Of a stretch of DNA of 64,000 bases, positions 21,710 to 59,356 are shown piece after piece. The DNA lies in the IMG/VR virus record IMGVR_UViG_3300046170_000148, positions 80,193 through 144,192 of that record. The stretch is one strand, 5' to 3'. Source of the DNA: a virus. Both the position numbers and the translations under genes were made by a program. Every line of letters starts with the position of its first letter. Within the stretch, counting starts at the first letter, position 1. The notes beneath the pieces were generated by a model. The model made no database searches and was not told the DNA's origin. It saw only the letters and a program-made list of their open reading frames with translations.

Positions 21710-22660
21710 TCAAGAAGCGAGAGCATATTCTACTGCTTTCTCGACTGCTTTGACTTTGCGTGATTGGTTTGCACCAAACCATGCAGAAGTCAAACGTGTG
21801 TCTGCCTCACGACCCATCTTGTGGTCAGTCAGGTAGGTCACGCTATTTAGTGCTTGCCACCATGTGCCTTCACCAAACTCTGCGCCAGGCTGAGTTTCCA
21901 GAACCTCATATGCTTTCTTCGCATTGGTGGTCAGGTCTTCGACAGACTGGACATTAACTTCACTCTTACCTTGATAGGTGCGAGGGAATACTTCGTTGTA
22001 ATACTCAACCAGTGAACCAACCGTGAAACGTTTGGACGAAAGAAACTCTGCGGTCTCTTTATACTGTTGGAACTTCTCATGAGCAATACCCAGAGTTTCT
22101 TTCACGGAGTCAGGATTGAATGCAGTGCGGTGGTTCAGAGATACCGAATTTGCAACCTTCTGACCAAGCGACAGTGACAGTGTGTTGTTGCACACTACAC
22201 GAATCGGAGTGAACCGAACATCGATGGACTTACCATACTGATGCGGGTTAGAGAACAAAAGGTATGAGTCAACTTGGTCACCACCAAGAATGTCAAAGGT
22301 GTCTTTTACTTTCGCAAGACCCCACACCATGTTACCATCTTTGAGTGAACCAGCGGTGTGCATTTCCATATCACCCGCAAGAACATACTCAGAGAAGAAC
22401 TCAAACGCTTCGCTGTTCTGAACTGGATTCCATCCTTTACCGATGACATCCAGAACTTTGTTGTCAGAGGAACGGACAAGCGCTTGTTTACCTTCTACTG
22501 TTGCACCAGACGATGTTACGAGGTCTTCCTTCTCAACTGTCCAGTCCAGACCAGCCTTCTCCATCATCTGACGGGGAGTCAGGTCATTTGATACAGGAAC
22601 ACCGAGACCGTGCCACGGAACTTCTCCTGCGTATGCCATTGTTTCTACTGCATGTGCCAT
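21710..22660 (-). CDS. DUF932/DUF945 family protein
   Basis: MAHAVETMAYAGEVPWHGLG, TAGSL, TPIRVVCNNTL. Confidence 0.85.
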   Translation of the reverse strand: MAHAVETMAYAGEVPWHGLGVPVSNDLTPRQMMEKAGLDWTVEKEDLVTSSGATVEGKQALVRSSDNKVLDVIGKGWNPVQNSEAFEFFSEYVLAGDMEMHTAGSLKDGNMVWGLAKVKDTFDILGGDQVDSYLLFSNPHQYGKSIDVRFTPIRVVCNNTLSLSLGQKVANSVSLNHRTAFNPDSVKETLGIAHEKFQQYKETAEFLSSKRFTVGSLVEYYNEVFPRTYQGKSEVNVQSVEDLTTNAKKAYEVLETQPGAEFGEGTWWQALNSVTYLTDHKMGREADTRLTSAWFGANQSRKVKAVEKAVEYALAS

Positions 22661-28184: not shown

Positions 28185-28225
28185 AAAAAAATGAGACGCT
28201 AACCGTGGGCGTCTCGCGGGTCTAT
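28185..28225 (-). terminator. Intrinsic terminator
   Basis: GAGACGC-N9-GCGTCTC followed by ATTTTTTT. Confidence 0.7.
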
Positions 28226-28285
28226 TGCGCGACCAACCGTTGGGGATTACTCCGACCAGAGCAGAGTTTTGAGACATCATCGGGT

Positions 28286-29765: not shown

Positions 29766-29843
29766 TGGTCGGGGTTGGAAGATTCGAACTTCCGACCTCT
29801 CGCTCCCAAAGCGAGCGCACTACCAGGGCTGTGCTAAACCCCG
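29766..29843 (-). tRNA. tRNA-Pro(UGG)
   Basis: Cloverleaf; CTCGC-TTTGGGA-GCGAG anticodon arm, GTTCGAAT, encoded CCA. Confidence 0.95.
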
Positions 29844-30028: not shown

Positions 30029-30047
30029 TTCATACTCCTAATAATTA

Positions 30048-30388
30048 GTGGGGACTTCTGTTGCTAGGCGTCCCCTGACCCCGAAAACTATGCGGCTAGC
30101 GCATAATCCTCATGTGCGTAATTATCGTTTGCACTTACGAGTTTGTTGCGCTCTTGCGGATGGGATTGCCCGTCCGTCTCACAGGTGGCTTCCGCACCTA
30201 TTCTCCACATTCCTAATCAATACCTGTCGAACCTGTTTCGCCCCCGAAACTTTAGTGTGAGGGGTTTCTGCTCCTCTGCTACAACCCCTCACGGAACTCA
30301 CAGATTGGGCCTCTCCTTGAGAGAGATTGGTGGAGGCGGTGGGTATCGCACCCACGTCCAGTATACCTTTTGGTTTGCTTCAACGAAT
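30048..30388 (-). ncRNA. ssrA: Circularly permuted two-piece tmRNA: acceptor piece ~30388-30328, intervening segment 30327-30246, coding piece 30245-~30048
   Basis: GGGGGCG/CGCCTCC-ACCA acceptor stem with G3.U70; T-arm GTGGG-TGCGATA-CCCAC; tag ORF 30132-30088 = ANDNYAHEDYALAA*. Confidence 0.92.
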
Positions 30389-30393
30389 ACCCT

Positions 30394-30401
30394 TATTTAT
30401 A
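30394..30401 (-). promoter_or_regulatory. T4 late promoter for tmRNA
   Basis: Exact TATAAATA just upstream of the acceptor piece. Confidence 0.75.
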
Positions 30402-30597
30402 CTCCAAGAATATTTCCTGCTTTTCCAATATCAAGAGTGCCACCATTCCGCATGTGTTCCTCTACTTGTTCAAAGTAGAATGCAGCGTCTTCGTGACCAT
30501 ACTCCTGAAGAACGTCCTTACACGCCTTGAAGAATAACATTGTCTTCATCAGATTACCGTCACCCATAGGTTTAGATTTTTTGCCAGACCGTTGCAT
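30397..30597 (-). CDS. Hypothetical protein
   Basis: 66 aa, TAATG-coupled to upstream gene. Confidence 0.65.
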   Translation of the reverse strand: MQRSGKKSKPMGDGNLMKTMLFFKACKDVLQEYGHEDAAFYFEQVEEHMRNGGTLDIGKAGNILGV

Positions 30598-30884: not shown

Positions 30885-31017
30885 AAGCTTTCCTTTCTTA
30901 TAACGCATATTGTTAATAACATGCCAATACAAATACATCATGGGAAACACGAACCTCTACACTCTAATTCGAGAACTTTAACGTAGACCAACCAACCTCA
31001 ATTCCCATCATGTTTAT

Positions 31018-45439: not shown

Positions 45440-45934
45440 TCAGTGGTTACTCCTCAGAAACACGTTATCAGACCGATAGAAACTCATAGATAGTCTCTCA
45501 TCTGTTAGAGGATTTACTTTATGTGTTTTGAAAGCTGGAACATATAAAACATCACCAACATCAAGTTCGAATCGATTATTGCCTTCGATAATCCATTCAG
45601 TTTTTCCTACGAGATTAACACAACAAATTTCCATCGGGTCTGCATGTTCATGTAAACCAGTTCGGGTATAGTCATCCATTGATATGAAGACTGTCGCTTC
45701 TTCCATATTATAACGGTTCATCAATTCGTCAACTATATCAGGTCTATCTTCAGTCAGATTATACAAATAAGCAGAAATAACTTTTACCTTTCTATTGCCA
45801 GCAACATTACTAAGCTTAAAATCTCCCTTTGTTGATAAAATATCCTCGATATAATATTCAGGCAAATCAAGATGTTCGACAATAAAAGGTTCGTCTATTT
45901 GTTCCCGATGTTGTATTTGGGACAGAGTTCCCAT
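45440..45934 (-). CDS. JmjC/cupin oxygenase
   Basis: HADP..VNLVGKTEW, GDVLYVP..HKV..RLSMSF. Confidence 0.75.
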   Translation of the reverse strand: MGTLSQIQHREQIDEPFIVEHLDLPEYYIEDILSTKGDFKLSNVAGNRKVKVISAYLYNLTEDRPDIVDELMNRYNMEEATVFISMDDYTRTGLHEHADPMEICCVNLVGKTEWIIEGNNRFELDVGDVLYVPAFKTHKVNPLTDERLSMSFYRSDNVFLRSNH

Positions 45935-46306
45935 TGGTCTTTTTCCTTGTATCCGATAATCTTGATTTGACGTAACGGGGCGCAATCTTGTGCGACCTCG
46001 TTATTCTGAATCTCAACCAGACCCCAGTCTGATAACAGAGTTGCAATCGTATTGCGGCGTTCTACATCTGTTTGTTCGAGGTTGGCCTTTCTTACCGTCA
46101 AGCATGAACAACTCTTTGAAGTGAACGATATAGTATCGTCCTTGTTTATGCAGGATATGACATGATTGGAATAGTTTGTTTTCGCGTCTGGATGCGACAC
46201 CTATGCGTGTCAGGGTTTCGCGAACTTTGAGGAAGTCATCGGGTTCTGCCAGAGTAATCTCCAACATGTTCACAGGACTCCATGATACTAAGTTACTTTC
46301 TTCCAC
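45895..46306 (-). CDS. regA: Translational repressor RegA (joined across extra A near 46088)
   Basis: DDFLKVRETLTRIGVAS, QSCHILHKQGRYYIVHFKELF, KYNIG. Confidence 0.95.
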
Positions 46307-48539: not shown

Positions 48540-49477
48540 TATACATACTCCACATTTGCCATACACTCTGTAAGGCAGGCTACTAAGTTCAGTTCGTGGT
48601 CTGCAACAAACGCATTCTTGTATTGGTAATCAGCAAGAATGAGAATGAGTTGCGGAACACTCTCTGGTTTCACATGACCTTCCACACTGTCATATACACC
48701 ACGGAAGATTGATGCGGGTTCAAGGTCGATATTGTTTACGACCCACTGACGCATCTTCTTGAAGTCTTTATCCTTCAAATGTTTATACAGGTCACTGTAT
48801 TTACTGTTGTCCTCAACGATAACCTCAGTAGTGATACTACCACCGATACTGCCTCGTTGCAGTTCGTTCAGTCCCCTACGAAAGTCAGGGAAGTGTTTCA
48901 TCACCAGATTAGCAACGACCTTACCATTGAACTCAACATCCTCTTTGACGAGGATGTCACGACACCGTTGGAAGAACTGTTGTCCCAGTGTCGCACGGTC
49001 TTGATTGGTTTTGACGTTGAACTCATACACACCGCACCGTGAGTGTAGGGGTTCGATGACACGGTTCTTGAAGTTACATGTCAGAATGAACCGACAGTTC
49101 TGTGAGAACTCTTCGATGAACCCACGCAGGGCTGGTTGTGTAGATTGGGGATTGAGGTAGTCTGCCTCGTCAAGGATAACAACTTTGTATCCACCTGACA
49201 GAGAGACAGATGATGCGAACTGTTTAATCTTACCACGCAGGGTGTCGATATTACCTTCTTCCGAACCATTGATTACAATATAATCCAGACCCAGTTCATT
49301 ACAGATTGCACGAGCAACCGTGGTCTTACCCAGACCAGCAGTCCCCGTGAATAACATGTTGGGTATCTCACCAGAGTCAACAATCTTCTGAAAGGTCTCT
49401 TTCAGTTCACTTGGTAGGATAGTTTCTTGGACGGTTTTAGGGCGATACTTCTCGACCCAGAGGAATTCATTACTCAT
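48539..49477 (-). CDS. 44: Clamp loader large subunit (gp44)
   Basis: LWVEKYRP, GTAGLGKTT, DEAD, SRC. Confidence 0.95.
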   Translation of the reverse strand: MSNEFLWVEKYRPKTVQETILPSELKETFQKIVDSGEIPNMLFTGTAGLGKTTVARAICNELGLDYIVINGSEEGNIDTLRGKIKQFASSVSLSGGYKVVILDEADYLNPQSTQPALRGFIEEFSQNCRFILTCNFKNRVIEPLHSRCGVYEFNVKTNQDRATLGQQFFQRCRDILVKEDVEFNGKVVANLVMKHFPDFRRGLNELQRGSIGGSITTEVIVEDNSKYSDLYKHLKDKDFKKMRQWVVNNIDLEPASIFRGVYDSVEGHVKPESVPQLILILADYQYKNAFVADHELNLVACLTECMANVEYV

Positions 49478-49499
49478 ACTTTCTCCATAATAAAAAACA

Positions 49500-49528
49500 A
49501 TAGTAACACATTATAATGTGTTTGTCAA
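49500..49528 (-). promoter_or_regulatory. Sigma70 promoter TTGACA-N17-TACTAT
   Basis: Read directly. Confidence 0.8.
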
Positions 49529-49529
49529 G

Positions 49530-49602
49530 AAAAAAGTGGAGTGAGCGGAAAGGAGACGCTCACTCCACCCCATAAGTCGGCGGAAAGGAGACGCCTAGAC
49601 TT
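49530..49602 (-). ncRNA. Candidate twin-hairpin RNA with identical UCUCCUUUC loops; distal hairpin doubles as terminator
   Basis: GCGGAAAGGAGACGC repeated at 49545-49559 and 49580-49594; 12-bp perfect stem followed by U6. Confidence 0.55.
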
Positions 49603-49828
49603 ATTCTTCGTCTTCATCCAAACTCTGAGAAGATTGATACTCCTCACAGATTTGAACGATTTGCACCGCTTGGTCACGCAACTGGCCAATGGTCGAAAGT
49701 TCTTCACCTTTGAAACCGCCGCGCTGAACGACAGTATCAACCACGGCGACAGTAGAACGAGCGACACGATTACCAAGTTCGTAAATTGCGGTATGGTCTT
49801 CTTGCGGTGTTTTATCTTTTGCCATCAT
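49601..49828 (-). CDS. Small conserved hypothetical protein
   Basis: RSTVAVVD..VQRGGFKGEELSTIGQLRD. Confidence 0.75.
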   Translation of the reverse strand: MMAKDKTPQEDHTAIYELGNRVARSTVAVVDTVVQRGGFKGEELSTIGQLRDQAVQIVQICEEYQSSQSLDEDEE

Positions 49829-50505
49829 TATGCTCCATATGTTGATGATTTTTCAAGTGCAATAAAGTATTCAGTCGGTGACTGTTTACTCGTGAATTTA
49901 GAGATTAGTTTAGATGAAACCTCAACATCATAGTCTTCGTTAATAACTTTTACATTACCAACATTCAGAACGAAGTTGAAGTCAACTCCTTCTGGATATG
50001 TCCCCTCTACTTCAATAGAGAAGGTATTGGAAGTTCTGTCTTCGGTGTCAGTGACAGTCAGACAGACCGCACCAGTTGCAGGGGTGACCGAGATATTCTC
50101 ATGACCCAGTGCAGCGGCGGCACGTTTTACTTTACTCAATGTGTCAGTATCTAGGGTGAATTTAACTTCCGCTTCTGGCATGTCAATGTTACGGCCTGGC
50201 GATGTCAACATCTCAGGGTCAGAGAAGAAATACTTCACCGATGAACGACCCGTAGAGTCACCGACCACAACGTAGTCAGTCTCAAACTTCAGACGGGGTT
50301 CGTCAACCAGAGACAGGACATTCAGAAACTCATTCAAGTCGTAGATGCCAAATGTCTGTGGGAAGGATTCGGTTGTCTCAGCAGAGGACAACACGTTACG
50401 CGCAACCGAAATAGTCTTCAGTGTGTTACCTTCAGTAATCACAATGTTCGGATTAATGGTTGCATAGTTTTTCAAAATGTTTAATGTAGTATCAGTTAGT
50501 TCCAT
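49828..50505 (-). CDS. 45: Sliding clamp (gp45)
   Basis: LKNYATINPN, FGIYDLNEFL, YFIALE. Confidence 0.95.
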   Translation of the reverse strand: MELTDTTLNILKNYATINPNIVITEGNTLKTISVARNVLSSAETTESFPQTFGIYDLNEFLNVLSLVDEPRLKFETDYVVVGDSTGRSSVKYFFSDPEMLTSPGRNIDMPEAEVKFTLDTDTLSKVKRAAAALGHENISVTPATGAVCLTVTDTEDRTSNTFSIEVEGTYPEGVDFNFVLNVGNVKVINEDYDVEVSSKLISKFTSKQSPTEYFIALEKSSTYGA

Positions 50506-50537
50506 AATAATAACCTTTCATGTTTCAGTGTGTTTAT

Positions 50538-50566
50538 ACTATAACATAGTTGACGTATAATGTCAA
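50538..50566 (-). promoter_or_regulatory. Sigma70 promoter TTGACA-N17-TATAGT
   Basis: Read directly. Confidence 0.8.
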
Positions 50567-53779: not shown

Positions 53780-53855
53780 TGGCTCCACCTGCTGGGCTCG
53801 AACCAGCGACCTAATGATTAACAGTCATCCGCTCTACCAACTGAGCTAAGGTGGA
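53780..53855 (-). tRNA. tRNA-Asn(GUU)
   Basis: 76-nt cloverleaf, CT-GTT-AA loop, CCA. Confidence 0.95.
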
Positions 53856-53861
53856 ATAATG

Positions 53862-53951
53862 TGGCGGAGGGTGAGAGATTCGAACTCTCGAAGGGCGTGA
53901 ACCCTTGCTGGTTTTCAAGACCAGTGCTTTCAACCACTCAGCCAACCCTCC
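53862..53951 (-). tRNA. tRNA-Ser(UGA)
   Basis: Long variable arm, CT-TGA-AA loop, GCCA end. Confidence 0.95.
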
Positions 53952-59282: not shown

Positions 59283-59356
59283 TGGAGCGGACGGAGAGAA
59301 TCGAACTCCCGTCGATGGGTTGGAAACCCACTGCATTACCACTATGCTACATCCGC
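59283..59356 (-). tRNA. tRNA-Gly(UCC)
   Basis: 74-nt cloverleaf, TT-TCC-AA loop, TCCA end. Confidence 0.95.

Follow-up and report, generated by a model that had tools for sequence, protein, structure and literature searches.

Genomic setting of the element

The window analyzed here is the whole stretch of 64 000 nucleotides that spans positions 80 193–144 192 of a 144 kb IMG/VR viral record (IMGVR_UViG_3300046170_000148; estimated completeness 87%). The phage is of the T4 type and has been sighted in many seawater metagenomes; its nearest named relative is Phage C48C1, for which a literature search found no paper. On the minus strand the gene order is gp46, gp45, an open reading frame of 75 amino acids (orf75), two adjacent hairpins and gp44. 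The sliding-clamp gene gp45 (225 amino acids; 49828–50505, minus strand) is orthologous to a region of Phage C48C1 that is annotated 'DNA polymerase processivity factor', and its stop codon is overlapped by the start of orf75 (49601–49828, minus strand; TAATGATG). The clamp-loader gene gp44 occupies 49477–48539 on the same strand. Two σ70-type promoters were recognized, both on the minus strand: TTGACA-17-TATAGT at 50538–50566, with 11 of 12 consensus matches and a TG extension, which serves the gp45–orf75 operon, and TTGACA-17-TACTAT at 49500–49528, which serves gp44. A comparable −10 box is present upstream of gp45 in relatives. The gp44 promoter follows directly downstream of the U6 tract that ends the hairpins; it is a neighbor of the twin-hairpin element and lies outside the element proper.

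Further features surround these promoters and start sites. The spacer of the gp44 promoter is filled by a perfect 16 bp palindrome (ACACATTATAATGTGT, 49506–49521), and other inverted repeats, such as GTTTCATA...TATGAAAC, lie around the −10 boxes of relatives; these are possible operators. A mini-ORF that is not conserved (AUG GAG AAA GUA UGA, 49474–49488, minus strand) overlaps the Shine–Dalgarno (SD) sequence and start codon of gp44 (AUGA). A UAUUAUG or UUAUUAUUAUG box adjoins the SD sequences of gp44 and gp45 (49481–49495 and 50503–50512) in nearly all relatives, independently of the CU-rich loop described below, and resembles the RegA operators of T4 and RB69. RegA is itself present in this phage genome: matches to PF01818 at about 45904–46267 (minus strand) fall in two overlapping frames that cover profile positions 1–60 and 55–122, which could reflect a frameshift, an assembly error or a split gene. 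The Rfam matches in the window, all on the minus strand, are an alphaproteobacterial-type permuted tmRNA and four tRNAs (30047–30438, 29769–29843, 53783–53951 and 59286–59356). Since the tmRNA is of this type, the host of the phage is probably alphaproteobacterial.

The product of orf75 is a small acidic protein with more than 587 homologous relatives in viral contigs. Its AlphaFold model (pLDDT 87) is a two-helix hairpin (residues 13–35 and 42–74) with an acidic tail. It has no Pfam match at E values up to 0.1 and no match among PDB sequences or in a Foldseek fold search, and its single weak PHROG match is to a family of unknown function; its identification as a known RNA-binding protein was rejected on these grounds. 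It is not a DUF1127 protein. Among named phages, orf75 was found only in C48C1 and in Agrobacterium phage Atu_ph07. Downstream of orf75, C48C1 has a different, larger structure than the twin hairpin, and Atu_ph07 has no intergenic element.

Structure of the twin hairpin

The stop codon of orf75 (UAA, 49603–49601) opens the stem of hairpin 1 (UAAGUC..GACUUA; 49573–49603, minus strand), which presents the loop UCUCCUUUC at 49591–49583. Hairpin 2 (49536–49571, minus strand) consists of a 5′ arm at 49571–49557, the same loop UCUCCUUUC at 49556–49548 and a 3′ arm at 49547–49536, and is followed directly by the U6 tract (49530–49535, minus strand). A GC-rich stem that runs straight into a U tract is the hallmark of an intrinsic terminator, and hairpin 2, whose stem of 12–15 bp leads into U6, is classed as one on this sequence pattern. 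Both apices read GCG-UCUCCUUUC-CGC. A preliminary description of this DNA had reported twin hairpins with identical apices of this form, in the 3′ UTR of a 75-amino-acid gene and ending in U6, and all of these features were confirmed on the minus strand.

The fold of 93 nt has a ΔG of −36.1 kcal/mol (z = −4.7), and none of 200 shuffled sequences folds as well. The 15-mer GCGTCTCCTTTCCGC occurs at exactly two sites in the window and in the whole 144 kb record, even at two to three mismatches. No further copy beyond the locus was found by searching for the 15-mer with mismatches, by a hairpin-loop scan or by running the covariance model of the element (R1) on five phage records; each of the five, including a complete one of 149 kb, has a single copy, always at this locus. 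A genome scan for hairpins with a U tract showed that the other terminators of the phage have ordinary loops, such as UUCG. No Rfam family matches the element at its gathering score, with only sub-threshold noise at E values up to 10.

In relatives, the element is 19–31 nt from the −35 box of gp44, and it keeps its place after orf75 even if a methylase-like or other gene comes next or the promoter is absent (L034, L040 and L044). This attachment to orf75 and the variable spacing to gp44 identify the element as the 3′ end of the gp45–orf75 transcript, for which a separate promoter lies upstream of gp45. Like 3′ UTR-derived sRNAs, it lies in a 3′ UTR, shares its terminator with the mRNA and has a conserved candidate seed. 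Parts of the locus were found in four seawater metatranscriptome runs, as contigs covering 49618–50051, 49616–49946, 49580–49821 and 49414–49605. The last of these spans both hairpins, the U tract and the promoter and continues into gp44, which is compatible with some read-through, the contigs being devoid of ends, strand and abundance and DNA carry-over being possible. RNAs of about 70 nt are lost from standard libraries. RNA contigs from separate studies commonly break at 49605–49618, near the stop codon, which is at most a weak hint.

Conservation and covariation in relatives

Three queries retrieved 240 orf75 loci, and 142 distinct sequences 3′ of the stop codon were compared. Picking relatives solely by protein homology and by the stop–hairpin–promoter layout gave 42 distinct sequences, 35 of which have a terminator hairpin whose loop contains UCCUUU(C). 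Among these 35, at least four unrelated families of stem can be told apart (GGUGGAGUGAGCG, GGGGGUGGG.GAG, GGGUGGGGCAAC and GAGAGGGUGGAUG). In the remaining seven the whole top of the hairpin has been replaced, and the terminator is short and plain, its loop reading AUAAAA or UUAAUU, for example; a point-mutated loop motif was found in none of the 42 sequences.

Fitch changes were counted on a gene tree built from the 3′ portion of gp45 together with orf75, with the 35 motif-bearing sequences as leaves (length 3.32 substitutions per site). The seven UCCUUUC positions of the loop have undergone 0 changes per site, and although six of them helped to define the motif class, this is not a product of the definition, since in the seven sequences without the motif it is the entire loop that has been exchanged and none of them is a point variant. 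The loop position immediately before UCCUUUC shows five changes, the two stem arms 2.75 and 3.17 changes per site with pairing kept, the promoter spacer 5.94, third codon positions 5.7 and second codon positions 0.75. Conservation of the loop against covariation of the stems, a check named in the preliminary description, thus comes out strongly in favor of a functional RNA. These counts show purifying selection on the loop and support the CU-rich loops as the functional part of the element; an invariant loop on stems that have been turned over is among the clearest functional signs that can be obtained from sequence alone.

On this tree the loop must have been lost independently at least four times, and the losses in L015, L021/L023, L027, L039 and L042 took hairpin 1 away as well. 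Hairpin 1 with a CU-rich loop is limited to 15 distinct sequences of one superclade, and its stem varies little within this narrower clade; elsewhere the loop of hairpin 1 is small and mostly pyrimidine, or hairpin 1 is absent. Most relatives carry the motif in one loop only. In a more distant clade a related run of pyrimidines, YUCUUUNCC, was seen, which bears less resemblance to the anti-SD sequence. In all, the element was found in dozens of distinct marine viral contigs.

Because a plain MAFFT alignment misregistered the bulged stems, loop-anchored indexing and a covariance-model alignment of hairpin 2 (31 distinct sequences) were used instead. In this alignment 93.2% of cells pair, compared with 76.9% in shuffles, and none of 500 shuffles reaches the observed value. 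Compensatory changes on both sides occur in eight of the ten modeled pairs of hairpin 2, the covariation score is 0.450 versus 0.207, and shifting the 3′ partner by one to three columns lowers pairing to 48–71%. The transcribed strand is indicated by the G·U pairs, of which there are 91 in the sense folds and seven in the antisense folds, and by the fold energies, which favor the sense fold in 31 of 36 sequences (mean −30.9 kcal/mol, antisense −26.0 kcal/mol). Both measures place the selected structure in RNA of the gene-sense strand, which is the minus strand of the window. The twin hairpin is very probably genuine, a phage RNA element under strong selection that had not been described before. 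It defines a new RNA family, for which viromes can be searched with the covariance model R1.

Other elements were observed in this genome and its relatives. A second twin-hairpin terminator module, with the loop GCNCAAUA in hairpin 1, the loop CAYGGUUA followed by a U run in hairpin 2, and covarying stems, is located at 28185–28240 (minus strand) of the window, just upstream of a TATAAATA late promoter, and after the orf75 homolog in L146–L163. In one clade this module replaces the CU-loop module after orf75, where it abuts the ribosome-binding site of gp44 with no promoter. The sister module can likewise be searched for in viromes. In the C48C1-like clade (L164–L211; L001:3443–3560), orf75 is followed by a hairpin of 11–16 bp and a U run, the hairpin enclosing 35–60 nt that contain a pyrimidine motif (CUUCUCUUUCACC, UGUCUUUGCCC or UUUCUUUACCU) and a UAUUAUGA box. 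An inner hairpin, GCGGUG/CACCGC, overlaps the long stem and competes with it, which looks like a switch between alternative structures. The next gene in this clade encodes a small membrane protein (MKLYDPLIAKE...) that was missed by the C48C1 annotation.

Anti-Shine–Dalgarno character of the loop and proposed pairing with the gp45 leader

The loop UCUCCUUUC is identical to the anti-SD sequence CCUCCUUUC at eight of nine positions, and the loop of clade B (UCCUCCUUUC) includes the entire 9-mer. The 3′ tail of 16S rRNA reads GAUCACCUCCUUUCU in many bacteria (PMC6288834), and the Sinorhizobium (S. meliloti) 16S 3′-end substrate carries this sequence too (PMC6943124). Over 207 start regions of the phage, the duplex energies of the loop follow those of the true anti-SD sequence (r = 0.93). 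Judged by these comparisons, the loop is a generic anti-SD copy rather than a tailored seed.

One complementary site lies on the same transcript. The SD sequence of gp45, GAAAGG (50514–50519, minus strand; leader AUGAAAGGUUAUUAUUAUG), is the exact complement of the loop core CCUUUC, and gp45 is the first gene of the mRNA that ends in the loops. The predicted duplex in the window itself is six AU-rich base pairs with −6.2 kcal/mol, rank 51 of the 207 start regions. In each of the 33 motif lineages compared, the loop finds a complement in the gp45 SD (mean −7.6 kcal/mol), whether the SD reads GAAAGGA, GAGAGGAA, AAAGGA or GGAGA; the predicted pairing is 7–8 bp in clade B, and in the complete relative G001 the gp45 start region ranks second of 202. 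Six of the seven loop-less sequences have weaker gp45 leaders (−4.7 to −5.7 kcal/mol). The association of loop loss with a weak gp45 SD comprises about four independent losses, in one of which (L037) a strong SD is kept, and outgroup clades without the loop have strong gp45 SDs as well. Pairs of loop and leader from the same lineage are slightly stronger than swapped pairs, by 0.2 kcal/mol (p ≃ 0.02 with kinship ignored). Complementarity to gp45 alone is weak evidence, because any SD sequence complements an anti-SD-like loop. In four loop-less lineages (L015, L027, L039 and L042) the gp45 leaders are of a GAGAGAA type without GG, possibly a compensatory weakening of the SD.

The best single hypothesis for how the element works, held tentatively and not established, is pairing of the loops with the gp45 leader. 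The bicistronic gp45–orf75 mRNA is served by the promoter at 50566–50538 and bears its terminator at 49571–49530, the twin hairpin being its 3′ end. The loop of hairpin 2, and in this clade also that of hairpin 1, displays the near-copy of CCUCCUUUC and would base-pair with SD-type purine tracts, the main partner being the gp45 SD (50519–50514) of the same transcript. Contact could be made in cis, between the 5′ and 3′ UTRs as in Staphylococcus aureus icaR, or in trans through 3′ fragments that accumulate. By competing with the ribosome, the pairing would exert negative feedback on the synthesis of the sliding clamp. The complementarity is directly visible in the leaders; that pairing occurs and lowers gp45 translation is what we infer. 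A mode of action of this kind, centered on the gp45 operon, is plausible, although we stop short of calling it probable.

To our knowledge, the list of regulatory RNAs in lytic T4-type phages is short, and it includes next to none from the marine members, which are abundant and uncultured. In T4, the dosage of the sliding-clamp operon is controlled by the RegA protein. Pairing of the loop with the gp45 leader, if it takes place, would put an RNA-only feedback layer on replisome stoichiometry and make the locus a phage example of communication between 5′ and 3′ UTRs.

Alternative explanations

Action wholly in trans is a possible but unlikely alternative, in which a stable twin-hairpin RNA of about 75 nt is released from the 3′ UTR and its anti-SD loops occlude the SD sequences of many phage or host mRNAs, in the manner of the cuckoo/CcsR or AbcR sRNAs. 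Conserved anti-SD-like loops on variable stems would suit such an sRNA, as would a layout that parallels the cuckoo/CcsR RNAs (adjacent hairpins, a common anti-SD-like loop motif and the 3′ UTR of a gene of about 70 amino acids) and an alphaproteobacterial-type tmRNA that suggests a host with such sRNAs. The share of sites that pair with the loop at −7 kcal/mol or better is about 18% for phage start regions and 4% for intragenic windows, and the RNA contig breaks near the stop codon add a weak hint. However, no phage start region was found to be complementary to the full 9-mer loop, GAAAGGA is not enriched in this genome (eight occurrences observed, 12.3 expected), and the loop has been lost at least four times. 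Predicted targets are furthermore not conserved between this genome and G001 (loop UUCCUUUC): across 127 ortholog pairs the energies show no correlation (r = 0.10), and the top two targets of this genome fall from rank 1 to 25 and from rank 2 to 116. The start region of gp44 was rejected as a target, its rank dropping from 20 to 126 in G001 and its UAUUAUGGAGA box being identical in lineages with and without the loop. Taken together, the results at phage start regions speak against gp44 as a target and against a trans regulon of phage genes that is conserved.

The preliminary description had gone further and proposed a 3′ UTR-derived sRNA that represses early translation, an RNA analog of RegB. 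A selected 3′ UTR RNA with apparently functional CU-rich loops stands from this proposal. The RegB-like global repression is not supported: the ribosome-binding motifs that it named are present as described (GAAAGGA at 1480–1486 and 30891–30897, minus strand; AAGGAGA before the starts at 22660 and 60403) but occur at chance frequency, the top targets are not shared with the relative, the loop has been lost repeatedly and its energies at start regions simply track those of the real anti-SD sequence.

It is similarly doubtful that the loop is a protein-binding site, at which ribosomal protein S1, a cold-shock protein, Hfq or the orf75 product would set the balance between termination and read-through into gp44, or the stability of the 3′ end. 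The all-or-none conservation of the loop would fit a protein site, and the second, unrelated twin-hairpin module with its own conserved loops suggests loops as recognition tags. A distant clade has GUCUUUG-like motifs, which we take to resemble the heptamer preferences of cold-shock proteins, and the less anti-SD-like YUCUUUNCC fits protein recognition equally. An RNA contig that spans the terminator into gp44, and a U tract that begins 3–4 nt past the stem in clade B, would be in keeping with adjustable termination. Cold-shock proteins have been linked to anti-termination (PMC1636342), and terminator loops that are active without detectable pairing have been reported (PMC11979758). On the other hand, orf75 has no RNA-binding signature, no candidate protein was found, with no phage-encoded cold-shock (CSD) protein in two phage genomes, and the near-identity of the loop to the 16S tail would have to be a coincidence. 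Hfq and ProQ, moreover, usually read the U tail and the base of the stem and not the loop.

That the locus is an ordinary terminator with a 3′ stabilizer hairpin, its loop kept for a reason unrelated to RNA, such as a DNA site for a factor acting at the gp44 promoter, is improbable. Hairpin 2 with U6 is indeed a canonical intrinsic terminator, the element lies 19–31 nt upstream of the −35 box in most relatives, and the loop-less lineages do well with a simple terminator. Terminator loops are normally free to vary, however, whereas this one has changed far less than the stems or the spacer next to the −35 box and has no equivalent in any other terminator of the genome, and the G·U bias indicates selection at the RNA level. 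The variable distance to the −35 box, and the retention of the element without the promoter (L040) or with other downstream genes (L034 and L044), make a DNA-level site for the gp44 promoter unlikely.

A mimic of the 16S 3′ tail on a very stable scaffold, acting as a decoy for partners that recognize the tail, is an improbable reading. The partners captured would be host mRNAs with an SD sequence, or a host factor by which the anti-SD sequence is bound or cleaved (such as a toxin nuclease or a 16S 3′-end processing enzyme). If this were true, twin-hairpin terminators, the second module included, would serve phages generally as a means of displaying short RNA 'epitopes'; acting in trans or as a decoy, the element would be a phage-made competitor of the anti-SD sequence of the ribosome. 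Finally, an antisense transcript serving as a CsrA/RsmA sponge, corresponding to the CsrA-type sites that the preliminary description had placed on the opposite strand, can be dismissed as having a negligible chance of being correct, since its two GGA loops do read GAAAGGAGA, 35 nt apart, but the 91 sense G·U pairs would turn into A·C mismatches in a plus-strand RNA, 31 of 36 relatives have their weaker fold in the antisense direction, the promoter calls include none nearby on the plus strand, and placement of the structure in the sense strand removes this reading.

Comparison with known systems

Protein-based control of the same kind of site is familiar from T4, in which RegB is a nuclease that cuts GGAG and RegA is a translational repressor of genes 44, 45 and others. 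The proposed pairing of the loops with the gp45 leader shares with these the post-transcriptional control at SD and start regions of early and replication genes in a T4-type phage, and differs in that the agent is RNA. Since RegA is present in this genome, the RNA would add to the protein-based control and not replace it.

In form, the closest analog is the cuckoo/CcsR family of Alphaproteobacteria, which has adjacent hairpins, each with an identical anti-SD-like pyrimidine motif of 9 nt in its loop, and which in Rhodobacter (R. sphaeroides) is located in the 3′ UTR of a small protein gene (71 amino acids) and processed by RNase E (PMC4615179, PMC8034643). The likeness extends to two adjacent hairpins of similar size, where the family has two to four, to hypervariable stems with compensatory changes in which the loop alone is conserved (here that of hairpin 2), to the 3′ UTR of a small protein gene, and to the host, which is here probably alphaproteobacterial. 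However, the loop motif of cuckoo is CCUCCUCCC in each hairpin (PMC4615179), whereas the loop word here is UCUCCUUUC with the core UCCUUUC; one of the hairpins is itself the terminator, most relatives carry the motif in a single loop, and the neighbor is not the DUF1127 (CcaF1) gene that typically accompanies the family in alphaproteobacterial chromosomes, the element being situated in a phage replication operon between gp45 and gp44. Owing to the different loop word and gene neighborhood and to the lack of an Rfam match, the element is not a member of cuckoo/CcsR.

As regards mechanism, in icaR of S. aureus a UCCCC motif in the 3′ UTR pairs with the SD sequence of its own mRNA, and the long duplex is cleaved by RNase III (PMC3868564); hbs of Bacillus subtilis is a related case (PMC5737220). 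The phage element may be comparable in that the anti-SD-like pyrimidine motif in its 3′ UTR can be matched to the 5′ SD of the same mRNA, but only 6–8 bp are predicted, in hairpin loops (a kissing-type contact) of a bicistronic mRNA, unlike the long 3′ UTR and longer duplex of icaR. Terminator loops are regulatory in SdsR, RseX and ArrS, and in OxyS the terminator loop and a second loop kiss the start region of fhlA (PMC11979758). An intrinsic-terminator loop together with a second loop is also the regulatory surface proposed here; these Escherichia coli RNAs are, however, free-standing sRNAs with specific targets, whereas the phage hairpins are the end of an mRNA and present a generic anti-SD copy. 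By analogy, the best-fitting precedents for the proposed action of the twin hairpin on gp45 would thus be the 5′–3′ UTR pairing of icaR and the terminator-loop kissing complex of OxyS.
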